Shown: positions 1,026-43,053, counted from the first letter of the whole stretch. The stretch: 48,090 nucleotides of DNA, filler included, from Basidiobolus ranarum (GCA_040143965.1; 2 parts of 2 records of this genome joined end to end with filler, not necessarily neighbours in it); one strand, 5' to 3'. The notes: generated by a model not told the origin, from the sequence alone. Program-made: numbers and translations.

Positions 1026-2065
1026 GGTGGGGTTGTTTTGATAGTGATCGTTAAAGAAATAACTGGAGTTATGGTCAAGTTAACCGTCGGGAATTTATAT
1101 GGGTTGACTTTTTTCATAAGTACAACTGCGACCTGCATGATTTCTATCCAAGTATTCAATAATAGCATCCTGCCGTTGAGAGAGGCAGTATTTTTGTGCT
1201 GGTAAAGAGGCTAGAGTGGCAGATTCAACTATGTTTGGGTCAATGTTGATACAGATATGCTAAAAATAATTCCAACAAGAGCAGTTATCTAATCTACTCC
1301 ACAGCCACAGTCACTGCACCCGCAATCCACAACTCACTCCATCTACAAATAGATACAATTGTTTAGAGTTTCAGTCGCCAATCATAAGTGAAGTAATCGT
1401 AACATCCATGGTAAGAGATATTTTTAACTTGTGCCAATTGAGGGTTGGCATCCAGAAGGATATTTACCGGTGTCTACCTAGATTGCATCACTAGGGTTAC
1501 ATCATATCGCGATTGCATGCAACGCAGGTAGTTACCTGGTAAGAACAACCTCGATTCTATAATACTTCGGAGTATTATGCTGTAGCCATGCTTAAAAACT
1601 CTCATGCATAAATATGTAGCAGTTATTGGCGATCATCATAGCAAATATGGTCGTAATGCGCGGCTAGGGTTAGGGTTAGAGTTCAGTTTTGACATTCTCT
1701 TTGGTGAGATATTTGGCAATCATGAGTCATGATGCTTTCCAAAAAGTGTCTAATCTACTGCCGAAAACGTAAGGAACGGGTCTATATTGAAAACGTAATG
1801 TAAATAGGTTGGCACTGCACTTGCCGAAATTTGAATCTGTACTCTCAAGTAACGATTTACCAACCTCTTTTGACACCTATCAGATTTCTTGGGGGTGAGG
1901 TTCTAATTGGATGTGAGGAGGGGAGGGGGAGTTGTACAATTAAATATTTATGTCATGTCCTCGTGAACCCTACTGCTACTATATTTATGCAACGCTCTGT
2001 TAAATAGATATTTCGGAATTTCTTTCTCTTGTTTACCTAGTTTGCATATCTTCAAGTTCTACACC

Positions 2066-3425
2066 ATGACTACCAAACAAACCACACCCGTCGTCTCTCA
2101 ACAACGTAATTATTGGTTACTTTATTTTTTGGAATTCTTACTTACGTACTTTGTTTTTTAGCTCTTCCGTTTCATCTCCAGTTCGTGGCTGGTGCCGTTG
2201 CTGGTGTCAGTGAGATCTTGACCATGTATCCTCTAGATGGTATGTACCGCATATACCTTTTAAAAAAAGAAAAGTAAATTTAAGGTTTCCCCTCTGTCAA
2301 GTCGTCAAAACTAGGTTCCAGTTACAAGTTGGAAAAGGTGGTGCTGAAGGTTACACTTCTATTGTTGATTGCTTCAAGAAAATCATCAAGACCGAAGGGT
2401 ATGTATATCTCCTCAAGTTCTTTCCTTTTTCCTTTAGTAACTTAGCATACTATCCAGTTTTGGACGTTTGTATCGCGGTATCATTCCACCTGTAATGGTT
2501 GAGGCTCCTAAGCGTGCTGTCAAATTTGCCACCAATGAACAATACAGTATTATGTATAAGAACCTCTTCGGAATGCCAAAGATGACCCAATCTTTGTCTA
2601 TTCTTACCGGAGTTAGTGCTGGTGTTACCGAAGCCTTTCTTGTTGTTTCCTTTGAGCTTGTAAAAATTCGTCTACAAGACAAAAGCAGTGTAAGTTATTC
2701 ATTTATAATGCAAATTGAATAGTTCATTGATGCTAACTTTTTAATATTATAGGCTGGTAAATACACAGGAACGATGGATTGTGTTAGAAAAATTCTTGCT
2801 CAAGAAGGTAGAGTTTAAAGTTTGTCTGTTTATCTTTTAAAGAGATGAGGAATTAAAGTCAATGTCGTTTCTTCTTTTTATCATAGGTCCTCTCGCTTTC
2901 TTCAAGGGATTGGAGGCCACTATTTACCGTCATGCGTTCTGGAACGGTGGTTATTTCGGTGTTATTCACGGAGTTAGAACGGCACTTCCTGAAGCTGAAG
3001 TAAGTGCAGTTATTTATAAAGAATCTGGGTTCGCGCAAGTCCCTAAATACTAAATGCACACTTTCATAGACTAAACAAGGTGAACTACTTCGCAACTTTA
3101 CTGCTGGTGCCATTGGTGGTACAGCCGGTACCCTCCTTAATACACCCTTCGATGTAGTCAAGACTAGAATCCAAAACCAAGCTCCTGGATCGGTTGTGAA
3201 GTATAATTGGACTTTCCCAGCTCTCAAAACCATCTACATGGAGGAAGGGTAAGCAAATATTCAGATGACTTGTAGCAATGTCCATATGAGCTAATTCTTT
3301 TTCGTAGTTTTGGCGCCTTATACAAAGGATTCGTTCCCAAGGTCTTGAGATTAGGACCAGGTGGTGGTATCTTACTGGTCGTTTTCGATCAAGTTAGCAC
3401 CATCTTACGAAAGAACTTCATGTAA
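2066..3425 (+). CDS. ODC1: Mitochondrial 2-oxodicarboxylate carrier (SLC25A21/Odc1-like), 8 exons
   Basis: Spliced protein MTTKQTTPVVSQQPLPFHLQFVAGAVAGVSEILTMYPLDVVKTRFQLQ...EAPKRAVKFATNEQY...SFELVKIRLQ...RHAFWNGGYFG...NTPFDVVKTRIQN...YKGFVPKVLRLGPGGGILLVVF. It has three carrier repeats and GT-AG introns. Confidence 0.93.
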
Positions 3426-3773: not shown

Positions 3774-5190
3774 ATGATTAAAGCCACCACGATCTTCTTG
3801 CTTGCTTACATGATACTAGAGGGAGCAGGGGTTCCTTTAGATGACATGAGTTCGGAGAGTTTATGTTATGAACACTCGCATCCATCGGACCCTAGCTATA
3901 TCTCCCCAGTAGAGTGCCTTCTCTCATCGAAAGAAACCACCAAGTATTCTGGTGAATTCGATAAGGATCGATCAGCAATGAGATTAGCTTCTTTTAAATG
4001 TACCGAAAGTCCAGCTGCGTGTAAGAAAGCTGAAGCTACATTTCAGATAGCTTTTGACATTCTGAGCAACGTAATAGAGTTTAAACGCCCCGTAGATGTT
4101 AGAGCTTCGTATGTGAATTATTGTAGAGACATGCAATGGTGTCGTTCGTCACTCCTAGGTAGGTACCAGAGTCGCCATCATAAAAATAGTCACACTAACC
4201 GTTCTTTGTAGGCTACGCTGGCCCAGCCAGAAGTATCAAATTGAAAGGAACCGATGGAAAACGTCGATTATATCCACAGGCACTAGTCAAGCAAATGAAC
4301 TTATCGGAGGTCCCAAAATTCAATGGAGTTGATATTCAAGCCACCTTTAACTCCGAAGCAAGATTCTGGTTTCAAGTGGTAAGAAAACCAATGAACATGT
4401 CCATGCACACATCGTAATATCTGACAATTACATCGTTTAGGACTCAACCCCCATTAAACGCGGGCAATACGACTTTCTCTCAGTCATTCTTCATGAATTG
4501 ATTCATGGCTTGGGATTTACGACCCAATGGAATAACTACTCCAAGCTCGGCTTAACACCGAGACCTAACTTCAAGAGCTCAAGAAATGGTGGTACAAAGT
4601 TTGTCGGGTTCACCGAGAATGCATTCGATCAATATCTAGTGGAAATCCCTACCATGAGAAACCTCACGGAAATCTCCGATAAGATGAGTAAAAAGCTTTC
4701 ACAACAGCACGAAGCCACCTCAAAATCAGGGATCTTCAGGAAGTTTCAAGATACCGCAGAGTCCCAATTCCCAAAGGATCTGTTGAAAGCCGTCACCCAA
4801 CCTAAAACCATTGCATTCCTGCCCAAGAATGCCAACGGCCCTAAAGATCTGATCTTCTTGGAAACCTCTATACGCAGATTCACTCAGGGTAGCTCACTCT
4901 GCCACTTGGATTATCGAAGCAATCTAAACTCACCAGACTTTGTGATGAAATACAAGAGTGGCCCTGGCTCAATCCAAGCCAAATTGAACCAAGTCAAATT
5001 AGGCAAATACTCACCCCTTGGTCCGAAGCTAATTGATATTCTAGAAACCTTGGGATATACAATTAACCCAAATCCCAAACCATTGTCAGAGATTCTTCCA
5101 AACTGGAGAGCAGTGACCAATACCGCCCAAGGCTACCAACACGACCAGGAATCAGATGACAACTCGTCCGATCAGTTCTTTTTGTGGTGA
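3774..5190 (+). CDS. Secreted zinc metallopeptidase, metzincin/leishmanolysin (M8)-like, 3 exons
   Basis: Signal peptide MIKATTIFLLAYMILEGAG. Introns at about 4159-4211 and 4379-4440. Exon 2 has LYPQALVKQ...DIQATFNSEARFWF. Exon 3 has DFLSVILHELIHGLGF (HEXXH), a distal GSSLCHLD and a Met-turn-like PDFVMKY. Confidence 0.8.
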
Positions 5191-5320: not shown

Positions 5321-7270
5321 TCAAGGATGTAAAACAGTAACCAAATATTCTTGATATCTATTTAAGATTAATTTAAATTCCTTTCTTGATAAATTCTCTC
5401 GATACATAATCTCCTCCACATGATGCTTGCCATCAAAGTACTGCGTTAATCTATATAGAATGAGAGTGGGTCAGTGAGAGTGGGTTAGGGCGTGTTAACC
5501 AGATGCGTGTTGCATGTTAGGGTTAGGGTTAGATGAGTTACCTTTGAAAAAGAGATGCAACCTCTCGAGGCTGTGAGGATGCCAACCTTTTCAGCCAGTC
5601 TCTTTCAACATCAGTGGCTTGTTCAGAGCCAGAGATTAATGAGTATGTCGAAGAGGCAACTAGCTCAGTGCTCATATCATGCTGAAGCTCTTCCAGTTCT
5701 TCCACGTTGTAGCCCAACTTGATGTGTTTGGGAATCATCAGATATATATAGGTGTGTAGCTGGATTACCAGATCTTTTTTGAGCAGATGAACCAACGCCT
5801 CAATGTACACCGATCTCTGCTCTTTGCTGGGGATGATCGATGAGTAGGCTTTGGGAGTCGAGAACGAGGACATCAGAGTAAATAGGTCCAATTGTGGAAA
5901 ATCCAATTGGAAATGCTCTGCAACTGTTGAAATACTAAGAAATCCAAACAAAACTGCTTAGTACACTGCTCTCTAGACATATTCTAGTCTTTAGCTTACT
6001 TGCTGAAATTCGCACGTGGTGGTATAACGTACACATTTCGAATGCTAATGGCATCAATTAATTTGGCCTTTCTCCAGTAAATGAGGTGAGCAGCCAAGCG
6101 ATATATCTGTGCTAAAGAACAATCAATGACTTCGTGTAACTCGGCAAGACTATGCTCAAAAGAGATTAACTGGGGTGGTTCAATGGGTTTTTGTAGGGAT
6201 TACTACCTTTTAGTGGGCGTCAGAGCTTTGATGAACTGGATCAGAGTAGGGGAGGAGTCGAATGGCATCTCACTCAACAACTGCTCCGAGTTCTCCAAAA
6301 GTAACAAAGTATGATAGGGTCTCAAGACTGGGTAATGCTCATACTGATACTCAGTACTTTCGGTGTCTTCATCTTCCAGAAAATTCGGAGATGTTTTCGG
6401 CAAATACGGGGGAATTTGTAAAGATAAGCTAATGTAATTGTTCACCTCTACTTGGGCCACTGATTTGGTTTTAACCGCATAGTAAATTCGAGCAATATCT
6501 CTTGCTAGAGAGCTCTGAGCTAACACTCGGCCCATTAACTCGTCATATCCAAATTCAACTAAACCGTTCAAAATTCATGTTACTTTATGGTCTTTCAACA
6601 TAATTCAAAATATCCCCCTACTGTTCGTTCCAGCCTCGTCCGTCAACGTCATTATCCGGTCCGCTTCCTGACGAACATACCCGCATCGTATTTGCTCATA
6701 TCTTAATGCGGCAGTGAATTTGGTAATGACATGGTTATACAAATCATCTACTTCTCGATTTAGGTCCAAAGCAGCTGGTTCCATAACAAACACAAGATGG
6801 AACATGGTTACTTGGGAAACTGGAGTATTAATATTCCCTTGTTGTTCGCCACCTGGAGAATACTCTGGAGAACTAAATTCCCCTTTGACTCCATTTTTAC
6901 CATTATCGGATATGCTTTCGTTACGTTTAGAGAGATTTCGTACTATCAAAGTAGGGTGACCGACAAAAGTAAGTTCATCTATGGTTAACTGAAAACGTGA
7001 ATCACACAAAGAAGCCTTCGGAGATAATATATCTGCTAGTAAATGGGGCTCATAGCCGAATAGATTCTCTGCTAACCAGTTACGTCGTGCTTCCGAAACA
7101 TCGGGATTACTAACTGAAAGTCGTTTAAAACTTGACTGAATGTTATCTCCAAAATCCGGGGGAATCTCGTTACGTTCAGCATTTGAAACGGAATTCTTTG
7201 GGTATCTAAAGACGAAATGATGACCTCTACTTGAGTTCACAATTAAAAGTATAGCTAACAAAGAGGGCAT
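5321..7270 (-). CDS. NPR3: Nitrogen permease regulator 3 (GATOR1/SEACIT subunit, NPRL3), 5 exons
   Basis: N-terminus LLAILLIVNSSRGHHFVFRYP, then LADILSPK..LCDSRFQLTIDELTFVGHP, ALRYEQIRCGYVRQE, LRPYHTLLLL and IYRLAAHLIYWRKAKLID. The last exon YFDGKHHVEEIMYRE ends at TGA 5321-5323. Confidence 0.93.
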
Positions 7271-7490
7271 GTTAGACTGTAAAAGTCAATAAAAAACCGT
7301 GGTATTCGAAGTAATCCGTTTATTCAGCATAAATTCATTTAATAATCGAGAAATTTATATTCTAAATCGATAATCCCAGTCTCGGTTTCGAATACAACTT
7401 CAGTATTCGATTTATTGATGTGCCATGGATGTGTTGAAACATTACTACTGGTTTGTTGCTGTTTTGTTGATTCGTGACTTCAACTAAAAT
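7271..7490. promoter_or_regulatory. Compact bidirectional promoter between NPR3 and RAD51D
   Basis: Only 220 bp separate the two divergent start codons. Confidence 0.6.
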
Positions 7491-21180: not shown

Positions 21181-24022
21181 ATGGCATTGTTCCGGAAGAA
21201 AAAACTCAAGCACAATAGTACCTCCACGGAATACGGTGATTTAGAAGAGCTAAGCTCTCCTGTTGGTAGCTCTTCCGGTATATCTCCAAGAACCCCCAAT
21301 AATCCTAGGTCTACGTTGAATGCACCAAATTCTTCAGGAACTCGTGGCTTGGGTAGAAGTCCCACCATCATGTCCAAAAATACTTTAAGTCCTACTCATT
21401 ATTCGGAGATTTCTGATGACCCTGAATATGAATATTTAATGAAGAACTCGGAGGCTTTAGCTGAAGAACTAGAGAAATTGATCGTAAGTTAAGCAATCCC
21501 CTTTTCTGTTTCATATTACTTTATGCTAATTCAATGAACAGGAATCTATGGGAATGGATGAAGCAACTAAAAACGCCATGCGAAATCTATCCGATGAAAA
21601 TAAAGTGAAAATCATCATATCAAAACGTCAAATGGCCATTGACGAGGTAAAGTCTACCCAAGTTTTTTAAAAGTTTGGTTTTTATACTGATTCAAGTTTT
21701 CTTATGGACTCAGAATAAAGCCGCACCAGATCACTATATTCGTAAATTCTCCAAGGAGGATCTTCGGAGTATCGGATTGAAGAGCATTAAAAGCTTGAGA
21801 GTTTCTTTGAGTACTCGTCCTATAGGGTAAGTTTAGCTCCTTAATAACGAATCAAACTAGTTTAACAAAATATGTTCTTGTAGATGGGTGCGTCAGTACC
21901 TTGAACTTGGAGGATTTCGCTTGATTTCCAAGTGGATTTTTAATCTTGCTGGCACTAGAAATGGGTAAATAGATTTGTTAGCATATTATTAAATGTTCTT
22001 GTATTCGAACTAATTGGGGTTGGTTTGAATTCATCTAGACGAAAAGAGATGGAGGAACAGGTCGAATATGAGCTTGTCAAGTGTGTGGGTTCGATACTTA
22101 ACACGAAGGTTAGTATTTTGTTGCACTGTAAATTACTTGGATAAAGGGTTTTCTTTAACTCTCCTTTCTTATGGGTCAATAGTGGGGTGTCCAAGAGGCT
22201 TTAGCAACTCCAGAGTGCATTATGAACGTAGCATATTCCTTAGATGCCACCCTCATACATACTCGTAAACTCGCAGTAGAGTTATTGACGTTCATGTGTT
22301 ATTGTGAAATTCCCAAAGGCTGTAGTTACGTACTAAAGGGAATGGACCAAGTAACGAAAGCGCGTGGATATCATCTACGCTTCGAAACTTGGTTGAAATC
22401 CCTGGAAGCCACCATCGACGGTCGTGGTATTCTAGGTTCACTGGTCAAAGCTAGTGAGGAAATTCGACGGGCCGGTGGAGCAGATCGAGAACTTGTTGAG
22501 TATGTTCTATCCAACATGATATTGCTCAATGGTATCTTGTACGCGTATGATGAGGTGGAGATGCGTACTCATTTGAGAAATCAACTTCATGCTGCTGGCT
22601 TGGGTAGGGTATTGAAGAAAATTCGAGTCTTCGCCAATGACCTTATTCTGATCCAACTGGACAAATTCGACGATCTTACTGAAAATGATTACCTCGAGTT
22701 ACGGGAGTTTTGTAACCACCAGGTACTGAAGGACATGTCCGATCCGTCCGAGGTCTTTCATGCAGTGTTGGAGTCGGTCGCTAACACCAAGGGCTACTCA
22801 TATCTACTCTCCATATTGCAGCATTTGCTAATCATACGCGATGATGACAACAATGAGGAAAACAGAATCAAATACTTCGAACTTGCTGACACCCTGATCA
22901 CTCAGATGGTATTGGACCGTCGTGGTTACGATCAAGATTTCTCAACTACCTATGGCGTTTCGGTGGAGTCCATCCTCTCCAGATTAGGTGATGATGAGAA
23001 ACTTCAACAGGCACTCAAGATCGCCAAAGAAGCAGAGAAGGTGGCTGAAGAGGCTACTGCGCGAAAAAATGACCTCGAACTGGAGATCGCCATGAAGTCT
23101 GACGGCCTGGTCGGAATTTTGAAATCGAAGATCTATTCTTTAGAGGACTTGGTTCGCATGTCCCGTTACACCATAGAAGCATTGGAAGATGAAAATAAGG
23201 ATCTTCGAAGCCAATACCGTAGTAAACTTACCAAGCAAGCAGCCCAATTAAAGGAACTTTACCAAATGATCCGTGATGGTCATCGAAGCAACATAACCCT
23301 TCCTCCCTCTGATGGTACAATCGAAATCGGGAAATTTGTTGCTGCCAACGATAGAGAACAAAAGCTACAAGATGAGGTCAAGCGATTGAAAAGTGAACAA
23401 AACACCATTCGCGAACAGATGGTTACTTTAAAAGCACAAATCAAGCGATCTCGTCATAGCTCCCAATCTAGACAAACGCGGAAACAAAGTTTATTGGAAA
23501 TGTCCGATTCAGAAGACTCCAACATTGACTCCTCTATTCATTCATTCATATTAGTTGACCACAAAGATCAGGATTTGTTGGATGATTCTGAGGATACTTC
23601 CACTGAGGAGCCTCTTTATACCCTCATGCCCAAACGAAACCCCAGTTACAATAAAGATCAGCCTTCATCCAAGTTGATACCTGTGTCAGGTGACTCTGTA
23701 GCACATAGTAGAGTTACAGACCTTGAGTCCACGCCGTCTGCTTCTGAGGCTGAAGAAACCGATAAGCAGGAAGTTGATGTAAACAAAAGAATCAACTCAT
23801 CTGCCACACCCGGATCGAAGGAATCGTTCAATATTCCAAATGAGTCATTAAATAGTAATGCCTTGGGGGCATCACCCGCATCAAGTGAGCCTAGCTCTGC
23901 ATCTCTACCTTCGCCACTACCACTCTCTATTAGTACACCAGGCGGACTTCCATCTGGCTCTGTTCTACCACCACCACCACCTCCACCACCACCCCCTATG
24001 GGCACTCCAGGGGGGCTTCCTT
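21181..24022 (+). CDS. Diaphanous-related formin (GBD/FH3, coiled coil, start of FH1), truncated by assembly gap
   Basis: LRVSLSTRPIRWVRQYLELGG, RKLAVELLTFMCY, EMRTHLRNQLHAAGL, GYSYLLSILQHLLII, YFELADTLITQMVLD and a polyproline FH1 run directly before the Ns. Confidence 0.9.
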
Positions 24023-24122
24023 NNNNNNNNNNNNNNNNNNNNNNNNNNNNNNNNNNNNNNNNNNNNTTAATTAATTAANNNNNNNNNNNNNNNNNNNNNN
24101 NNNNNNNNNNNNNNNNNNNNNN
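24023..24122. other. 100-nt assembly gap containing an artificial TTAATTAATTAA linker
   Basis: N runs flank ttaattaattaa (24067-24078), a self-complementary spacer with stop codons in all six frames. Confidence 0.95.
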
Positions 24123-25749: not shown

Positions 25750-27380
25750 CTACAATATATACTGGAAATTGGACTTCATCGCTTCAGGTTTCACCCCGCT
25801 TTCCATATCTGCATTCCCCTGTTTGAGGTTTTCTCGGCGCAAGAAGATCTTGATGAAAATTGTCACAAAAATCCCCACTAGAATCAAACTAAGGGAGACT
25901 AAATGGCCTTCAAGGCACCGTGGCCCCTGTGAGGGATGATAGAATTGACCTCCAAAGGCACCTCCCATTGTACCAAAGCTCACCATCATAGCGGTGGCTG
26001 TAGCAGTTTTGGTGGTACCTACCATGTTGTTCGATAGCCAAGCGATAACCACCGGGATTACTGGGAAAAGTCCCACCATCACCAGCATCGAGGAAATATA
26101 GAGTGGACCAGGCCCATCCAATGTAACTAGCAGTGCGTAACCAACAATGCAGATAAAACTGGGCACCATGATATGATACCCTCGTTCTTTGGTACGGTCT
26201 GAGTGGAATGTGTTGATAAGTGCAATGATAGCCGATAGAATATAAGGCGGGGTAGTAAGGAGCTGTGTTTGCATATTGGTGAAACCCATTTGTGAAATCA
26301 GTGTTGGAAGATATAACGAGATAGAGATCGAAGGGGTGACTATACAGAAGTACAATATCATGTAGAGCCATACTTTGAGATCGCCAACAGCAGCCCAAAA
26401 CTCCTCTCTCTTAAAGCCAGTTTCTGCGGAATCCACCAAGTCGATTTTTAGCCGATTGACCGCAAACTCTCGTTCCTCTGCACTAAGCCATGCAGCTGTA
26501 CCAGGGAAATCTGGTAGATAGAACCAGGTACATACTCCAAGGATCAGTGATGGGGCGCCTTGAATAATAAACACCCATTGCCAGGCATGAAGTCCGCCGA
26601 ATGCCTCAAGATGGCTTAATAGAAACGACAATACACCACTAAAAGCGCCTGCCAGCAAACAAGCGGAGAAAAATAGCCCGATTCTTGATCCTTGTTCACT
26701 TCTTTTGTACCAGAAAGAAAGATAGAATATGATGCCTGGAAAGAAACTGGAGAATGGTAAGTATATTGATTGTAAGCAGGTGTTTTTGTTTGAGTACGTA
26801 CCCTGCTTCCGCGCATCCAAGAAGGAATCGGCATATCATCAAGGATGCAAATCCTTTCACTGCGGCAGTGCACATGGTGATGATTCCCCAAGAGACCATG
26901 ATGCGAGAAATCCAGCGCGAAGGACGGAATCGCTTCAGCAAATTGTTAGATGGGACCTCCAGTAAGACGTATCCTGAGAAAAAGTTAGGATCCAGTTGAT
27001 AGAGATTCCAGATAGCGTGGAGACTTACCAACATAAAATATTGAAAGGGACCAAGCAAATTGATCATCAGTGACACCTACGCTTTCCTCCATGCTAAACA
27101 AGCGAGCATTCCCTATAGATGGAGATTCTAATATTTAGCACCATTGTTGAGCATCCATTCCGTTTACAAAGGTTTACTTACCGATATTGACTCTATCGAG
27201 AAAGGAGCACAGATACAGCAAACTCAAGAATGGGATCAGATGCCAGTCCATCTTTCGTAAGAGTTTTTGTTCCGAAACTGGGGGCTCCTTCGCTTCAAGC
27301 TTAACTTCATAGCTGGTGGAAATTACATCTCCCTCCACACAATGATCAGGTTCCTTGGATGGTGACTTGTTTCCGAGCAT
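25750..27380 (-). CDS. MFS transporter, anion:cation symporter (Tna1/Dal5-like) family
   Basis: EQKLLRKMDWHLIPFLSLLYLCSFLDRVNIG/NARL, YVLLEVPSNNLLKRFRPSRWISRIMVSWG, RFLLGCAEAG/FFPGIIFYLSFWYKRSE, AWQWVFIIQGAPS, QLLTTPPY, SDRTKERGYH. Confidence 0.93.
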
Positions 27381-29182
27381 TAACCGCGAGAGTAATTGAG
27401 CAAGAATGAGTAAGTTTAAATAAGAAATCAAAGTTGTTGGAGATTAAAGCCGGCACCGTGTGCTTTTATATCTAGTTTTGACTAAAGATTCCTCGGGGCA
27501 AGTAACATTCAAGCATTATCATAGTATATGCAAGTGTAGATGAGTATTGCGACTCCACCGAAGTACACCAGTGGTCTTGCATTGAATCGGCAGAAAGTGT
27601 TTTATTTTTAACGATTACAAATACGAATCCAATGTTCCGAAAAAATCGGTTTGGAACGTGATAGATAGTCTAAGTGAACTAGTTCTGAACGCATCAATGC
27701 GAGAAATTGGACCACAATGAGACATTGGAAACTAACCGAGTTGAAACACTCGTTGCCCAGGATTAGAGGAGGTTACTTTCAGTTCTATTCATGTTGAAAC
27801 AGGCTTCATATGTAAACTGGCTCAAACTCAACCCATACAAGATCCTTACTAGAAGAACAAACTTAAGCGAGAAGTACAGTAGTGTCCTGCATAGATACTC
27901 TAAGACAACGCACTAAGCTAATCGGCAGGTAATTTGTTAAGCGCTAATTCTTACTGTTATTTTTGATATGAGGATGGATCAAGTGAGATAGTTCAATGCG
28001 AGACTAAGTTTAGCATCATGTAAGATACTGACTTCCATGGCTTTTCCGATATTGTTTCTGTTCTCATTAGGTCTTTCATCAGTACACACACGTTGGGAAA
28101 CATCACGGTAACCTCCATGTCCATTCTGCGGCCTGATGACCACCCCCAGTGCTTGTTATTAAACTGTTGGACTCTTCTGGCACCGTCCACTAATGCTTAA
28201 TGCTTTGCTTGAAATTATTTTTAGAGTGGAAGGGAATGGTTATAACCGCTTTTACATTGTTGGCAACAGTGCGTACAAAGCTGACTCTGTCAAATTAACT
28301 AAAATTGAGCTCTTCGGCATGAAAGTTTCTTCATTCGTAACAGATTTAGTTTTGTGAGCACATTTGAGGTTTCCATGATAACTAATTTAGCTATCGAATA
28401 ATTACACTTCATTCCCAACATGGGCAAGTGATCGGGCTAATTATGCACTAGCACACGGATATGATGGATTACTAGGCGGCACTCTGATTGGTTAAAGGGT
28501 TCAAAGTTGTTCTACAGTCATGTCTATAAACGAGCACTCATTAGATGCCTTGTAACATGTAAAACCATTGATAGAATCCCACTCTGCGGAAAGTTATGCA
28601 ACACTCGAAGACAGCAGAAAAAGCATCAACTTAACCCTATTGAACAATCAAAGTATAAGCACCAAGTCATTTAACGTATCGATGAGTCCAGATTCTTTTA
28701 TGCCATTTGTATCTCCTTCTCATTGGTACAAGAGCTTCAGACCTCGGCCAGCTAAGTACTAGTCAGCCTAGCGAAATGTTTTCTAGCTCAATCAGACTTT
28801 GTGATACAGCCCCTTAATACTTCCTCAATCAACCAAGGAGGCTATAACCTGTGGAGTATCGTGACAGTATTTGTCTACAGCAGTAGAAACGTCAGGACAG
28901 CTCGCTGAAAAGTAGATAATTGCCGCTTCGTGAGATCACAACAACGACTGTTTGGAGCACCTGGCTAAATGTAGTCAAAAACTGAATAGCATCATGCACT
29001 GATGATAATGATGGTATTAAGATACTTTCACGTACTTGACTCATTAGATTAACAAAAGGAATTGAGCTACGTCAGTATTAGGTGGATGGCTGGAGTGGGA
29101 TTTAAATTAATTTGATCATGATAAAATGAGAGCCGCTTGGAAGAATTATAAACCAATTCTACAATTTTCCATTGATTCTAAC

Positions 29183-29488
29183 ATGTTTGCCTCCCTTCTT
29201 TCTATCAATATTTTACGCGGCGTTAAAGTAACCAGGCCTTCTACTGCTACGCACTTTCTGAGAGTCCGATTCTCCTCCCATATGGGTGAAAGTGGAGAAG
29301 ATATAGAGAAGGAGAAGGAGAAATCGTTGAAAGGAAAGGCCAATGAGTCTATTCCTGATCATCCTGGCTGGAACGAGAAGTTGGCAAGTCATGCCGAAGC
29401 CAGTGTAAAAGCTGACCATGCCTCAGAGAAGCCATTGGAGCAATTGCAAAGAGAATCCGTGCAGCATATTAAGAAGCAGCATCACTAA
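29183..29488 (+). CDS. Small conserved fungal mitochondrial protein of unknown function
   Basis: Arg/Ser/Thr-rich presequence (MFASLLSINILRGVKVTRPSTATHFLRVRFSS) followed by HPGWNEKLASHAEASVKADH...LQRESV, a motif I recognise from small uncharacterised fungal proteins. An upstream ATG at 29126 is also possible. Confidence 0.7.
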   Translation: MFASLLSINILRGVKVTRPSTATHFLRVRFSSHMGESGEDIEKEKEKSLKGKANESIPDHPGWNEKLASHAEASVKADHASEKPLEQLQRESVQHIKKQHH

Positions 29489-29754: not shown

Positions 29755-30710
29755 TTATAGTATTTTGGTTCTCTGGGTCCAATAGTTATAACCGTAAGAA
29801 ACGTAGATTTGCTGATCAGCAGGAATGTTTTCTTGGGCTACATACATCACATACCAGCGATTTTTGTAAGGCACATAAATACCACGAGCGTTTGGTTCGT
29901 CGTGATGCTAAAAATCATTCGTTAGTGAATCTCAAAGGGGTAAATTGGTGTGAAGAGAGTAATAGCAGTAGTTACTAACATTTGCAAAGCGGAACCAGTT
30001 TCCATAAGCCTTAGCATCGATGCCAAGGTCAATTTTGTTTCCTTGATCATCCAGAACATTGCCTTTGTAGCTCCACATATAATCTGTAGTGTAGGATTCA
30101 TTTGTAATCACTCCACCAAATACCCCAAGAACAGAGCCTCCAGGTATATTAATGGAGCTATACAAACCGTAACCACGGTCATCATCTACCCACCTAACAT
30201 ACATCCGCTTATCGTTAGCAGTACCCTTCTCGATGAAAGGCCCATACTTTTGGGCCAGATAGATGAGTGAGGCTTCGTCATCTACGTACTCAGGATATTC
30301 AGAGTCAGTGGTGATATCGTGGCTATCCAAAAAGCGCTCGATATTCGGGTCGGCTACCTGCAATGGCATAAGTATTTACTACGAAAAGATGCTCAATCGG
30401 ATTATCTTACCATTTTGTTAAGCGGCACTACTTGATGAAAATGAAGAAAGTCCTGCTGGTAAAACTTACGGACACCAGCTTCAGCTCTGGGTGGCTCCTT
30501 GTTCATGATTGCACTTAGCAAATGATTTTGTTTAGCAATGGTTTCTTCATATGCGTGTAATTGATTATCTCCAGAATAATGGGTATCTGCAGCATGATTA
30601 ATCCCAAAGTACTGATGAGCGAAGTAGTAAAATAGAAATGCGTAGATGGCAGTGTGTATCAAATAGAGTCTGCTCTTCGGCTGTTGGGTGTTTTGTAATG
30701 CCTGAGTCAT
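29755..30710 (-). CDS. Membrane-anchored SET-domain protein, paralog A (276 aa, 3 exons)
   Basis: Exons 30710-30411, 30357-29980 and 29907-29755. N-terminal TM LYLIHTAIYAFLFYYFAHQYF. SET motifs RGYGLYS, IDAKAYGNWFRFAN/HHDEPN and QIYVSYGYNYW. Confidence 0.88.
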
Positions 30711-32532
30711 TGAAAAAGTGAGAAAGAGCTGGTAAATTCAATGAAAAGTACTACTGATCTGTCGCCACTTGTATATATTTTGGATGGATAGAACCAGCAT
30801 TATATAGACCGTTAGCTCCATACATCTTTCAAGCCCCTGTTCTATTCCACAATACACATCAAAGATCTACAGCAGCAAGCTTAGGGATCATACTCTCCCT
30901 GTTTAACCTGATCCTTGAGGGGTATCGATGGTGCTAAGTTAGCTGAGACATGATAGTGTTCCACATGATGATTAAGATTCATATAATAGAACTGATGAAT
31001 CTAAGTGTACGGAGCAATCTGAGGATCTGGGCGGGCAAATGGACCCAACCCTCCATCAAATCATGAATCAAATGGCCAAAATCTAAACTTCAACACTGTC
31101 GTATGTAGCCTCCTACTGCTTCAATGTGTCAGGTACAACACAGCCCTAAGGAGGTTGATGCAAAGCACCATGATAGGACGATACGTTTGTGTGACGAAAT
31201 AAGAAAGGAATGTATCGCGGCATTATAGTGTTATTGTCGCCTATTCCGTGAGCGAGCCCGAATAGCAGTGAGGGGAATTGTTGTGGACGAAGAGTAAACA
31301 ACTGAGTAAGGGGGTCAGTACAAAAGTGGGCTACAATTATTTACTATTTATTAGCCGCACATTTGATTAAGCTGATTTTGAATCAAATTATAAATATTTA
31401 CGGGGAGTGTTTGCATCCTTAAGATGTGGCAAAAGCACCACTCACTGGGCTTGTTTGGGATTATCTTTTACCGACAGATCATCAAATGTGTGAACGATAC
31501 TCGCGCTTTTTCCAGTAGACACTACATAAGAGGAGGAGAGATATGAAGGTAGCATTGGACAATCCCAACTAAATCACGTATGAGCCTTCTTGCGGGATAC
31601 CAAGTACTCGGCCACATAAAGGTTGGCCGGATCACCTCAATAAACGTACAATGATTTGGTTTCAAAGCAGAACCCCTTTTGGCTTGATGACTGCTTTCAC
31701 CATCAGGATTGAAATGGCTAGTCATATACCATTTGGTAAATGGCGTGGTACAAGCCATTATATTGAACATGTCTCAATATAAAAACATATACATTCTTAG
31801 AGGGTTAGAGACAAACAAGAGCACTTGACCAATACCACCAAAAGAGTATGAATGAATGCAAATTGACTCCTTGAAGACAACACCTTCCATTTGCTATGTA
31901 TTAATGTGATCTTATGCGAGTAGACCAGTTTCCACTCACTCAGATTAGCAACACTCTGTTGGCTAGGAGCACTCGCTTGAAAGGGGTGTACCAAGATGTT
32001 TCTGCTGGTATGAGCAGTGAATCTATTTGAACAGGTAACATAAGGCCATCTCTACATTTCTGGCCCACGAATTTCATGAAACCAGATTAGATCGAATACA
32101 CTCAATAGACTCTCAAATTTCTCTAGTTGAAGATCTCGGATCAATTCCCAATGAAACATCCCCTTGGGATCTACTCAAAGTTAGGTACATTAAGCACAGC
32201 CGGGTATTGTCTGGATGGATGATCAGCAATTAATGTCAACTTTGAAGTATCACCCATTTCCTAGAAATCGATCTGTATTCTAAAAACCCAAATAAGTGAG
32301 CACTCAAGGGGCACTGGACACCATTTGAAGGGATTGAATCTACAACCCAACGAGCTCCTCCAGACTCCTTTTGAAGGAGAGTTTGTATGACTAAAAGCCG
32401 AATATAAAGCTGCCCCATGAGCCATCTCTAACTTCTCAGGAAACCCCAACGAAGCTCTCTGTTTGCATTGTTTACAGTTATATATTCTTTACAAAGGCTT
32501 ATCAAGTTTATCCGTTATATTCATTAAGCACA

Positions 32533-33480
32533 ATGACTAAGGCTAGGTTTGCACAAACTGAAGCGAAGGAACTCAGAGTGGGAAGCCATTCAGAGGGTCA
32601 CGTCAAACGCATGCTGAAATCAGTCCCCAATGGTGTCTACGCTTTCGTATTTTATGTGGCAGTGTTCTTCTTGATTGGTAGGTACTTGGATCCGTTGAGT
32701 TCAACCTCATCTACCCAGCATGTCGGAATAGCTTCGGAAGTGACCAGATTGCATCAACAAACGATGCTACTTCAAAACGAGATATTCGAGATGATCTTAA
32801 AAGGTAAGAAGATCGATACCCATGGCAACGCCGATTCTCGGCGCTTCTACATGGAAGACTTTGAGGACTATCATCAAGTAGTTCCTATTCATACCATGGT
32901 AAGATGCAATATAGTATGTTAATATAGCTTGAACAACTTACAAACCGAGAATTATTAGTTGATTGATCCAGCAATTGAGAGATTCGTACACGCCCACGAC
33001 ATTACAACGGACGAAGAATATACGGAGGACGCCGAATCTATCCAGACTTTGGCCCTTAAATACGGAGCTGCTATTACTGAAGGTACCCGCTATGATAAAA
33101 GATTCTATGTTCGTTGGGTTGATGATATCCGAGGCTATGGACTGTTCACTACTGTTAATATACCCAGTGGAGCCATCCTAGGCATTTACGGTGGGCTCTT
33201 GACCAACGGTTCGTATACCACCGACTACATGTGGAACTATAAAGGAGAGGTGTTAGATGATCAGGGCGTTAAAATCGACCTTGGCATTGACGCCAAATTC
33301 TACGGAAATTGGTTCCGTTTTGCCAATCATCATGACGAGCCCAATTCACGAGGTATTTACATACCCTACAACAACAAATGGCATGTGATCTATGTTGCCG
33401 AAAGTACCATTCTTGCTGATACACAAGTGTTTGTCTCCTACGGCTCCAACTATTGGACAAAAAGAACCAAAATTTTATAA
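32533..33480 (+). CDS. Membrane-anchored SET-domain protein, paralog B (295 aa, 2 exons)
   Basis: Exons 32533-32898 and 32959-33480. TM VYAFVFYVAVFFLIG. SET motifs RGYGLFT, IDAKFYGNWFRFANHHDEPN and QVFVSYGSNYW. Confidence 0.9.
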
Positions 33481-35731: not shown

Positions 35732-37057
35732 TTAGAAGCTACAGTAGGGCTGATGACCTCCGTCGCGTACTAAATAGCAAGGGAAATCACTGAAAGTGGA
35801 GTAGTAGGTCGAAGAATTCCCAAATTCGTAACCAACGAGAGGATTTAAGGGGTATGAAAATTTCGGCGATGACTGATAATTAATTGTAGAAAAATTGGAG
35901 AAAGGAGGATAATTTACAGAAAGAAGTGATGGTGAGGACATCAAATAATTGTGTTGGATTTGAATCATCACACTAGCATATTGGCAAGTAGCAGCCATAC
36001 TAGCGAGAGCAGCCACTGCGGCAACATAGCACAAGCAAATAGCACCAAGAACTTTACTCATGAGCATCATGGCATCTACAGGGCGAAGTGAAAGATTCAA
36101 GCGATTTATATACTTTGGGAGCAGTGATTGGGAGAGTATCGATACATCCTTGTAAGATAGCACATTCCGTCCATAGATTTGACTCAGACTCAGGCTAACT
36201 TCGATATACGATAAGAATGCCTCATACATCTCCTCCGTAACATAAAGGTTGTAATTCAACTGTGACAAGAACTTCCTTTCCATTTGGTTTATCTCATTCA
36301 ACGAAAATCTGCCACACGTAAAGTCGGCCCAATCTTCATTTGTATATGTAGCGGCTGAAAGATATTTATCCGCAACAATAACTGACGCCAAGAACATAGG
36401 AATTGTTGACCACTCCCCAGAGCCATCTACATCACTCACATCGAATGAATGCTTCTTTACATAGGAAACCTCATCATCATAAATGCAGCGTCGGCTCCTT
36501 CTTCTAGGTGACTGATACACTTGATTTGACTTGGATTTGAGTCTATCCACAAAAAATAAACCAAGGATTAAGCTAGTACAAGAGAGTTGTGTTCTATTTA
36601 ATACTCTACGAATAAAATTGACAGCGGCGTGATCAACTTCCAATGGATATATAAGAGATGGGTCGCTAGAATCATCCATAGGCTGAACATAAAGTAAAAA
36701 GAAATTTTCTCCAGTAATTATGGAGGCTATCATAGTAGCAGTTAGATCTAAACGTAAAAGGAAGGGTAAATTGGTGGCCAGTCAAGACAGAAACTATGAG
36801 AGATATTACCAATTAAATTAAGTGGGATGTGAGTGTAGTCTTCGGTGTTCATACCGTAAGAACGAAGTCGTCCAACAAAAAGTCTATATTCTCCTAAAGG
36901 ATCGGAAATCTACGTAAATCTCATTAGAATGGGCTGTAACAAAGAGATTGAGAATATTTTAACTGGAACATACTTGCGACACAGTTTTTCTTAGAGCTTC
37001 GTCTTTATCTTTTATGCTTTGCTCTCGGCGTTGTTCTTTTCTACGCTTGGTTCCCAT
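35732..37057 (-). CDS. CNPPD1: Pho80/Pcl-type cyclin with C-terminal transmembrane helix, CNPPD1-like, 3 exons
   Basis: Cyclin box LGLFFVDRLK, FLASVIVADKYL...YTNEDWA and LNEINQMERKFLSQLNYNLYV. Then FLSYIE...GRNVLSYKDVSIL and the hydrophobic VLGAICLCYVAAVAALASMA, as in animal CNPPD1. Two upstream exons splice in frame from ATG 37057. Confidence 0.75.
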
Positions 37058-41103: not shown

Positions 41104-42342
41104 CTACGAATAAGTGATTTCAAACTCTGAATGAACATCATCACTACTAACGCTGATACTTTCATTGGGATCTAAATCACGTCTCATCAATAAACGTTGG
41201 TATATCTCCCGTTCTGAAGCACCAGTTCTTGCCATCATTACTCCGTTAAATAATACTAGAACTAAGGGACCATCTCCGCTATTCAATAGCTCCATGAACG
41301 AACTTGAATGCTGAAAATCTAACCAGTGTTTCGCTACAAAGAGACATATTTTTGCTAATACGCGGCACAATTCATATTTGTAGGCAAAATGTAACAACTG
41401 ATCGTAGTTCTCCATTGAAACGATACTTACTAGTATCTTTTCCGTCCAGAGACATAATTCTGGCAAGTCATACATATCAGATAATGTATAAACAGCAGAT
41501 AGGTATTCAAAAGCATCCTTCTCTTCACTTCCTTCGATATCTCGCTGCTTTGGTGTTTGAACATCAAACTCGAAACAACCGGTGTAAATGTACTTGAAGA
41601 CAGCGAAAACAGGCTCATATTGAAATCCGGGAAGTTGTATGATTTGTTGCGTACTCTCGCACATATTGGATGTTTGGAACATAGCTCTAAAATAACTACT
41701 TCTACAGCACAATAGGAATTTGGTAGCATATAGAGCCTTCCCTTCTACCTTGAATTCCACATCGCTAAAATTGGGATCATTTAATTTATCTTCAAACTGT
41801 GGTATGTAATAAGTCGGTGGATCGAAGTTCTCCAAACTTGTAGCATCCGTGGTATTTCCACCAGAAGCAGTCAGTTGTTGTGAATCAGTTATCTCAGTAT
41901 CGCTACTTGTGTTGATGAAGAACAATTCCACACCAATGATAAAACTATCCCGTTCTCCCAATAGTTCATATAACTCTCTCCTATCTACAAAGCGTTCGAA
42001 ACCTTGAGATTGTTTCTCACAAAATACCCGCCTGCTAGTAAATTTCTTCAGTTTACGCTTTAGTCCTACGTCCAGTTTGAGATAAATACAAAATTCCACC
42101 TCTTTAGGACATGGTAGTCGTGTTGGCCTCAAATAGACTGATACAAAATTCTCATGTTCGTCATAACCGATAGGATATATTTCTAGACGCCAGATAGTAT
42201 CCACTATTAAAAACTCCGAAGTGCAGACTTTGCGCGTGGTGATGTGATGGAAATTTTTGACCTCCCATTGGAAAGAATAATACATATGAGATTCGGAAAC
42301 AATTGGTCTTCTACGACTTAGGTTCATATCCAAGGTTGTCAT
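41104..42342 (-). CDS. MATH-BTB (SPOP-like) Cul3 adaptor, intronless
   Basis: MATH domain FQWEVKNF...WRLEIYPIG....FVSVYL...GFERFV. BTB domain FSDVEFKVEGKALYATKFLLCCRSSYFRAMF...VFKYIYTG...SDMYDLPELC. Confidence 0.9.
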   Translation of the reverse strand: MTTLDMNLSRRRPIVSESHMYYSFQWEVKNFHHITTRKVCTSEFLIVDTIWRLEIYPIGYDEHENFVSVYLRPTRLPCPKEVEFCIYLKLDVGLKRKLKKFTSRRVFCEKQSQGFERFVDRRELYELLGERDSFIIGVELFFINTSSDTEITDSQQLTASGGNTTDATSLENFDPPTYYIPQFEDKLNDPNFSDVEFKVEGKALYATKFLLCCRSSYFRAMFQTSNMCESTQQIIQLPGFQYEPVFAVFKYIYTGCFEFDVQTPKQRDIEGSEEKDAFEYLSAVYTLSDMYDLPELCLWTEKILVSIVSMENYDQLLHFAYKYELCRVLAKICLFVAKHWLDFQHSSSFMELLNSGDGPLVLVLFNGVMMARTGASEREIYQRLLMRRDLDPNESISVSSDDVHSEFEITYS

Positions 42343-43053
42343 CGCAAGTTGAGGGTAAACCAATTTCTATACTTCTAGTAATAGCAAGACCAAGTTGGGG
42401 AAGGGGTTTCCCAATTTAGTTGTATTTGTATATAACTTAAATACTCTTGTTTGCAAGCCACTATGAATACAGTACAGGCAAGGAACAACGTGGAGCTCGT
42501 TTAATGAAAAAGATTAAAATAATAATTTGTTTAGAGACTTTAATACGAGCTGAGTATATGTATATATGCCAATAAGATAGTAGTTTGAGGTGACGAGATA
42601 CAGGAATATATTGAGTTTCAAATGAAAACGAGGATTCCAGGGAACTGATCGAATTAGAAATACTAAAAATAGGTTTCTTGCAATATACAGGTGCAGTTAA
42701 GTCGTAACACATGTCGACGATTTGAGACAAGACTAGTACTCTTTAATAAGAGGATGAAGTCACGAGCACTTTCCCTTAATGCTAATGATATTCGAGCCAA
42801 ACATGATAGGTGTTGATAAGTGAGAACGATGCTTATTCGTCAAGTTTAATATAATCTTGAATCAGAGCCTCAATGCTCACGTTGGAAGCGCATCTAGTCA
42901 TCCAAGATGGCTCAATAGCATTCACCATGAACAGTTGCTCTAGCAATAACATAGGAACAAGCATAGCCACAGTAGTGATTAAAGGTCAGTGACTAAGGTA
43001 GTCTCGCAGAATATTTATTGATGGGGTTTAGAAGCCACAAGAAGCACAGAAAA

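Follow-up and report, generated by a model that had tools for sequence, protein, structure and literature searches.

To our knowledge, nearly all work on SET-domain enzymes has dealt with them as lysine-methylation writers of the nucleus or cytosol. Type II Golgi enzymes, such as the glycosyltransferases and the plant pectin methyltransferases supplied by import of S-adenosylmethionine (SAM) into the Golgi, are built from a short basic cytosolic tail, one membrane span, a stem and a catalytic domain. Diatom SET proteins named BacSETs are reportedly among putative endoplasmic reticulum (ER)-targeted proteins. This SET methyltransferase family is reported to have been tied to diatom cell-wall formation by Nemoto et al. 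2020 (Mar Biotechnol 22:551). Among the papers that cite that study, PMC11151724 gives seven BacSET-type genes as suggested regulators of cell-wall proteins and long-chain polyamines, bioRxiv 10.1101/2020.11.23.393678 counts 24 BacSETs that are co-expressed with silica-deposition-vesicle genes, and PMC11554505 lists 12 SET genes inhibited by salinity. Here we describe a head-to-head pair of SET genes, gene A and gene B, at positions 29755-33480 of a 48 090-nucleotide stretch of DNA (the window; filler included) from Basidiobolus ranarum (GCA_040143965.1). We rate the chances as about even that their products are type II membrane-anchored lysine methyltransferases acting in the ER or Golgi lumen, a reading in which membrane insertion, orientation, compartment, the lysine acceptor and the substrates are all inferred.

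The two proteins are like the canonical SET histone methyltransferases (EHMT1/GLP, G9a, EZH2, MLL, SET2/NSD/ASH1L, ATXR5) in having the GxG, YxG and RFxNHxxxPN motifs and a catalytic Tyr with an aromatic C-terminal flank. They differ from the SUV39/G9a, SET2 and EZH classes in lacking cysteine and the pre- and post-SET zinc clusters, and, in place of chromatin-reader or other extra domains, they have a predicted N-terminal anchor with a stem, and a pre-SET block of their own. The predicted order of tail, span, stem and catalytic domain is that of the type II Golgi glycan-modifying enzymes, whereas the fold is SET and not GT-A, GT-B or a Rossmann-type methyltransferase. Small SET domains without zinc clusters are also found in bacteria (Legionella LegAS4/RomA, Chlamydia-type proteins, and a metagenome-assembled genome, or MAG, of Babeliales), the Babeliales-type proteins adding an N-terminal anchor and a spacer. 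The proteins of gene B (P0006) and gene A (P0009) are not members of the NCBIfam LegAS4 family, since their matches to model NF043024 cover the SET core only and score 34.2 and 33.1 bits against a cut-off of 550. With the BacSETs they might share substrates other than histones, those proposed for BacSETs in the citing papers being cell-wall proteins and long-chain polyamines. However, BacSETs are described as diatom-specific and tied to silica, and Basidiobolus and the Blastocladiomycota make no silica. The preliminary description of this locus knew of no such system. This needs qualifying, because the diatom BacSETs are a printed precedent. For fungi, a full-text literature search turned up no publication on SET enzymes that are transmembrane or lumenal.

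The window is eukaryotic (G+C ∼40%), and the two genes correspond to proteins deposited at NCBI, K7432_004557 for gene B and K7432_004556 for gene A, each with a 100% match to the window. Joined exon translations reproduce these proteins of 295 and 276 amino acids (aa), respectively, so that both spliced products are as first proposed. The ends of the feature are also exact, position 29755 being the first base of the gene A stop codon (minus strand) and position 33480 the last base of the gene B stop codon. All three introns at the locus are GT..AG, and one is common to both genes, with an identical phase-0 position in the alignment (junctions ...LNKM/VADP in A and ...IHTM/LIDP in B). The genes are paralogous, with 54% identity over the aligned residues (147/274), and the inverted DNA similarity between them is restricted to the exons. 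In relatives from other genera, a conserved block continues ungapped in the alignment across the exon 1/exon 2 junction of gene B, which argues that exon 1 is joined to the SET exon. A word-based protein search gave four close proteins only, three in B. ranarum and one in B. meristosporus; the third B. ranarum copy, P0008, lies elsewhere in the genome. The divergent pair had been presented as a system. It consists simply of two head-to-head paralogues, with the third copy elsewhere in the genome and with no neighbour of related function in Pfam scans of other large open frames of the window (see below).

Both products are SET-domain proteins in which the motifs for SAM binding and catalysis are intact and zinc-cysteine clusters are absent. 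The Pfam SET model PF00856 matches gene B exon 2 at 48.1 bits (gathering cut-off 22.4). An intron divides the domain in gene A into pieces that score 13.0 and 22.2 bits, with the full-length protein carrying PF00856 in its precomputed annotation. Both proteins contain the motifs GYGL, GNWFRFANHHDEPN and SYGxNYW, neither has a single cysteine, and the Zn-Cys clusters of the pre-SET, AWS, CXC and post-SET types are not present, in agreement with the intact SET core and the absence of cysteine and zinc clusters reported in the preliminary description. The best sequence match of the gene B protein in the Protein Data Bank (PDB) is EHMT1 (2.8e-6); in this alignment GYG (181-183) pairs with GWG, RFANHHDEPN (242-251) with RFINHHCEPN, and Y283 of VSYG..YW with the Tyr of FDYG..FW. 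The key residues are kept throughout the family alignment introduced below: G183 in 135/147 sequences, N239 in 141/146, N245 in 129/146, N251 in 140/142 and Y283 in 123/137. SAM-dependent lysine methyltransferase activity is thus predicted for both proteins, with lysine as the presumed acceptor.

The predicted structure agrees with this assignment. An AlphaFold2 (AF2) model made with the four Basidiobolus sequences only was unusable (mean predicted local distance difference test score, pLDDT, 33.1) and was replaced by one made with the 148 sequences of the family alignment, in which the gene B protein has a mean pLDDT of 87.3 and a predicted template modelling score of 0.70. Residues 101-290 form a globular domain, with 10-residue block means of at least 93. 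Foldseek returned 365 matches to the PDB at E ≤ 0.001, and among the best 50 of these, which were the matches listed, all are SET methyltransferases, with Set2, GLP and ATXR5 at the top and NSD1 and EZH2 also among them; the top matches reach 5e-10 or better. The ATXR5 alignment extends over ∼200 columns and takes in the pre-SET helices, and the best viral structural neighbour is the Bodo saltans virus lysine methyltransferase (1.2e-12). By sequence, the pre-SET block (residues ∼101-165) had no match in the PDB. Since the matches of the family profile to solved structures are confined to the SET core (EZH2, 3.5e-18), no member of the family has a solved structure.

An exhaustive profile search detected 1586 representatives at E ≤ 1e-3. 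Of these, 461 remain at E ≤ 1e-10 and 73 at E ≤ 1e-30, and among the 73 are the seven Blastocladiomycota proteins named below as well as proteins from bacterial MAGs, Babeliales for example. The matching proteins are mostly of 200-370 aa, and the matches run from near position 100 through to the C-terminus; 150 representatives were listed, with organism names for a few. The search for relatives in early-diverging fungi that had been suggested was productive, as all the named relatives are Blastocladiomycota, with seven proteins from Sorochytrium, Blastocladiella britannica, B. emersonii, Paraphysoderma, Allomyces macrogynus, A. javanicus and Catenaria. The alignments define a family-specific pre-SET block, RFYxxDF…V.P.H….DP.I….HDI..D..Y, and a C-terminal SYGxxYWxxR. 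The family alignment used throughout (A4) holds 148 of 156 proteins; of the eight left out, three exceed 480 aa and five are fragments or match poorly. In a quick maximum-likelihood tree of 75 sequences, with support from the approximate likelihood-ratio test (SH-aLRT), the four Basidiobolus proteins form one clade (96%), in which gene A branches off first. A second clade (99%) unites the seven named Blastocladiomycota proteins with three further sequences, and a third (99%), separate from the fungal clades, contains four bacterial sequences. As judged from these alignments and the tree, genes A and B belong to a new, conserved, anchor-bearing SET subfamily and are not an oddity of Basidiobolus.

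Although the bacterial proteins are of the same small type, genes A and B differ from them in having spliceosomal introns. A recent transfer from bacteria as the origin of the two genes was therefore rejected, on the introns and on the separate position of the bacterial clade. In P0150, a SET domain is joined to a signal-like N-terminus and to an OmpH-like segment (35.8 bits against 32.4); relatives of this protein are encoded at four loci in bacterial MAG contigs. The anchored proteins at two of these loci, L001 and L002, are given in Table 1; the L004 homologue, of 205 aa, is without an anchor. A conserved-stretch search with another alignment (A3) matched 15 stretches in bacterial and archaeal genomes, none of which was confirmed. 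In the ESM Atlas, a diatom SET cluster scores best among the feature neighbours of P0006 (0.94, 166/256 features), and the structure neighbours of the Atlas's own P0006 model are Chlamydiota SET clusters; P0041 scores at most 0.86. The feature scores are leads only.

Two variations at the active site were seen within the family. In the column of H246, part of the N-H motif, Asp replaces His in 28 of 144 sequences, including the Blastocladiomycota proteins P0010, P0013 and P0016 (RFANDG…). P0037, P0041, P0058, P0065, P0067, P0070 and P0072 form one clade of the tree (99% support), and six of the seven (all but P0072) stop a few residues past the GEEL strand, lacking the SYGxxYW tail and the catalytic Tyr. 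These tail-less members may be inactive or may use another catalytic residue.

The basic tails (PKSR in gene A, VKRMLK in gene B) and the single hydrophobic helix per protein that were first reported are both present. A span was defined as a 19-residue Kyte-Doolittle window with a mean of at least 1.6 (KD19), and the count was made on the 119 aligned sequences with a Met start and at least 30 residues before the DF motif, 29 N-terminally short sequences being set aside. A span ahead of the conserved block occurs in 81/119 sequences at 1.6 and in 99/119 at 1.4, while 100 shuffles of each N-terminal part gave at 1.6 a mean of 12.4 sequences and a maximum of 20. Windows of at least 1.6 in the catalytic part are seen in three of the 119 only. 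Thus, the layout of tail, span, stem and SET domain put forward for the two genes extends beyond Basidiobolus. By hydropathy, gene B, P0007 and P0008 each have a single N-terminal span of KD19 1.76-2.07 (1.87 for gene B), with a value of 1.04 for gene A. The sequence of the span varies between clades, as expected of an anchor. The coiled-coil character attributed to the stem holds as a heptad pattern only, the best 28-residue window having hydrophobic residues at 6/8 a/d positions in gene B and at 4/8 in gene A, and AF2 models residues 60-89 of gene B as a helix. These features make it likely that the proteins are membrane-anchored SET methyltransferases.

The distribution of charge around the span points to a cytosolic N-terminus. 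Among the 81 sequences with a span, comparison of the 15-residue flanks shows the N-terminal one to be the more positive in 54 and the C-terminal one in 15, with equal charge in 12. Pooled tails contain 15.4% K+R and 8.2% D+E, and pooled stems 11.0% K+R and 13.9% D+E; basic tails with acidic stems favour an exoplasmic SET domain. In 16/81 sequences the tail reaches 40 aa or more (60 aa or more in seven) and contains no hydrophobic segment ahead of the span, and in 29/81 the span begins within the first 12 residues, in the manner of a signal peptide. One relative, P0017 (1007 aa), has a Gly/Arg-rich region, three LIM domains (113.7 bits), one span at 733, a stem and the SET domain. All but one of its 23 cysteines (22) are on the LIM side, ahead of the span, and residues 625 to 742 include no Met from which a separate gene could start. 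LIM domains are cytosolic or nuclear zinc modules, so if the gene model is real the SET domain would be across the membrane from them. The bacterial relatives L001 and L002, in which a K-rich, Sec-type anchor is followed by the SET domain (Table 1), also count for this orientation. Loss of all the Zn-Cys clusters fits an oxidising compartment, without proving it. A lumenal orientation of the SET domain is therefore plausible.

On this reading, the basic N-terminal tail would be retained in the cytosol, and the one short span would enter the membrane of the ER or Golgi as a type II anchor. The stem would hold the catalytic domain in the lumen, where imported SAM would supply methyl groups to lysines of secretory-pathway proteins, either transiting or resident. 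Amino sugars had also been suggested as substrates, and no evidence for them was found in this analysis. Neither stem, read for Kex2-type shedding, contains a KR site.

A number of results weigh against an anchored, lumenal enzyme, and the first of these concern the anchor. The helix of gene A, with a KD19 of 1.04, two His and several Tyr, is weak. Simple Hessa-type sums are slightly positive for all four Basidiobolus helices (+0.2 to +1.8 kcal/mol over 17 residues), making them all marginal, and 38/119 full-length sequences are under the 1.6 threshold. Such values would suit a soluble SET enzyme, in which the hydrophobic helix packs on a partner or mediates oligomerisation, or in which exon 1 is outside the mature product. 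The motif Y-A-F-x-F-Y…G, which is invariant in the helix of all four Basidiobolus paralogues while its flanks differ, hints that this helix makes a specific contact with another helix and is not simply an anchor, and this too could belong to a soluble protein. We nevertheless regard a soluble enzyme as improbable, because the hydrophobic segment is far more frequent in the family than in the shuffled sequences and persists while its sequence changes between clades, and because the conserved block that runs into exon 2 starts in the exon that bears the helix.

Other results count against the lumenal side of the membrane rather than against the anchor. The topology is a prediction from hydropathy and charge statistics obtained with our own scripts, and the charge bias is opposite in 15 of the 81 sequences with a span. 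P0017 is known from one predicted gene model, in which two genes could have been fused by error. The N-x-S sequon that had been noted at the same position in both proteins is there, with exactly one per protein and N205 of gene B aligned to N186 of gene A. It is kept in 23/30 of the closest sequences but in 42/144 overall; sequons number on average 1.13 per domain, which by our own estimate is about what composition would give by chance, and 41/141 domains have none. As evidence of glycosylation the sequon was therefore rejected. There is also no conserved disulphide pattern, cysteine making up 0.55% of the domain, with none in 48/141 domains and one in 62/141. With neither a disulphide pattern nor an enrichment of sequons, the usual marks of a lumenal domain are missing. 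A supply of SAM to the fungal ER or Golgi lumen is assumed by the lumenal reading, and the neighbourhood offers no functional hint, as a Pfam scan of 19 large open reading frames (ORFs) of the window gave no family related in function to the SET pair.

Several of these points would be explained if the same anchored enzyme had the reverse orientation, with its N-terminus exoplasmic or buried and its SET domain facing the cytosol or nucleoplasm from the ER, the nuclear envelope or the mitochondrial outer membrane. The substrates would then be cytosolic, ribosome-associated or peripheral chromatin proteins. The SET enzymes characterised so far act in compartments with available SAM (cytosol, nucleus or organelle stroma), and the closest solved relatives are all histone methyltransferases. 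The spans are moderately hydrophobic and, in gene B (…IGR) and P0007 (…IGK), are followed directly by a basic residue, as in signal-anchored outer-membrane proteins. The 15 sequences with the more positive C-terminal flank, the 12 ties, and a domain with neither disulphide pattern nor enriched sequons would also be expected. However, most of the family has the opposite bias (54 sequences against 15), with tails that are net basic and stems that are net acidic, and the long tails would be difficult to translocate. The LIM-span-SET protein places a cytosolic zinc-finger module opposite the SET domain, and the signal-peptide-like N-termini of 29/81 sequences are not easily accommodated. We therefore take the cytosol-facing orientation to be unlikely, although it is the most serious of the alternatives.

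The basic tails allow one further location. If the tail were a mitochondrial presequence and the span a stop-transfer segment, the SET domain would be tethered to the inner membrane on its intermembrane-space side. The pooled tails have the basic character needed, with 28.9% Ser+Thr+Pro and the low D+E content given above, a hydrophobic sorting segment comes next as in bipartite presequences, and SAM would have free access to the intermembrane space. As presequences, though, the two tails are poor, that of gene B having three Glu in its first 21 residues and that of gene A being only 12-14 aa long. In addition, 29/81 relatives have almost no tail, and the layout is common to the bacterial relatives. 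A mitochondrial location seems very improbable to us, even more so than a soluble enzyme.

If the lumenal reading of genes A and B is right, it may apply more widely. We tentatively propose, as a possibility that we hold to be somewhat less than even, that they represent an ancient family, in eukaryotes and in bacteria living inside them, of exoplasmic SET methyltransferases acting on lysines of secretory, wall or surface proteins, with the diatom BacSETs, whose proposed targets are silaffins, as a specialised branch. In that case the secretory pathway would have, in lumenal protein-lysine methylation, a general but overlooked modification system older than biosilica, and early-diverging fungi would need to import SAM into this pathway. 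The family would also provide candidates for the enzymes behind the methyl-lysines that secreted silaffins of diatoms are known to carry, and would raise the question of which targets are methylated in fungi without silica. Even with a cytosol-facing domain, a membrane-tethered minimal SET family of Basidiobolus, Blastocladiomycota and intracellular bacteria (Babeliales) appears, from the full-text literature search, to be undescribed.

The features of the locus, its neighbours in the window and the two anchored bacterial proteins are collected in Table 1.

Table 1. Features of the SET gene pair, Pfam-assigned neighbours in the window, and anchored bacterial relatives (bacterial positions refer to their own contigs)
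Feature	Position	Strand	Description
Gene A exon 3	29755-29907	-	aa 227-276 and TAA stop; HHDEPN, catalytic Tyr in VSYG, C-terminal NYWTQRTKIL; Pfam SET positions 67-105, 22.2 bits
Gene A intron 2	29908-29979	-	72 nt, GT..AG; separates N226 from H227 of the N-H SAM-binding motif; no counterpart in gene B
Gene A exon 2	29980-30357	-	aa 101-226; conserved pre-SET block, GYGL, sequon NES (30094-30102), GNWFRFAN
Gene A intron 1	30358-30410	-	53 nt, GT..AG, phase 0; same position as the sole intron of gene B
Gene A exon 1	30411-30710	-	aa 1-100; basic tail of 12-14 aa (…PKSR), hydrophobic helix, stem, beginning of conserved block
Gene A hydrophobic helix	30606-30668	-	aa ∼15-35; aromatic and His-rich; KD19 maximum 1.04, marginal
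Intergenic region	30711-32532		1822 bp between the divergent start codons; presumably both promoters
Gene B exon 1	32533-32898	+	aa 1-122; basic tail of 30 aa (…HVKRMLKS), helix, stem, beginning of conserved block RRFYMEDF…HQVVPIHTM
Gene B hydrophobic helix	32629-32685	+	aa 33-51; KD19 1.87; AF2 helix 33-51
Gene B stem helix	32710-32799	+	aa 60-89; AF2 helix
Gene B intron	32899-32958	+	60 nt, GT..AG, phase 0; joined exons give P0006 exactly
Gene B exon 2	32959-33480	+	aa 123-295 and stop; helical pre-SET region and SET domain
Gene B SET Pfam match	33133-33444	+	PF00856
Gene B sequon	33205-33213	+	NGS
Gene B N-H motif	33325-33345	+	NHHDEPN
Gene B catalytic Tyr	33439-33441	+	Tyr283
NPR3	6608-7285	-	Pfam
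Formin (FH3/GBD)	22183-24075	+	Pfam
MFS transporter	25753-26835	-	Pfam
Cyclin	35735-36781	-	Pfam
MATH-BTB	41107-42366	-	Pfam
L001 protein (bacterial MAG)	1350-2111	+	253 aa; K-rich Sec-type N-terminal anchor, spacer, Cys-poor SET ending SYGxxYWxxRK
L002 protein (MAG labelled Candidatus Babeliales)	3791-4495	+	234 aa; K-rich Sec-type N-terminal anchor, spacer, Cys-poor SET ending SYGxxYWxxRK

The intergenic region contains no long ORF (stop-to-stop frames of at most 84 aa), and Rfam and ARAGORN found no RNA family and no transfer RNA in the window. A Pfam family was assigned to five of the scanned ORF translations and to none of the other 14. The assigned neighbours are unrelated housekeeping genes, and a functional gene cluster was rejected on this ground. 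Close to the pair, a 125-aa open frame at 29111-29488 on the plus strand, which has no Pfam family, runs convergently towards gene A and ends 267 bp from its stop codon; it probably represents the final exon of a neighbour.

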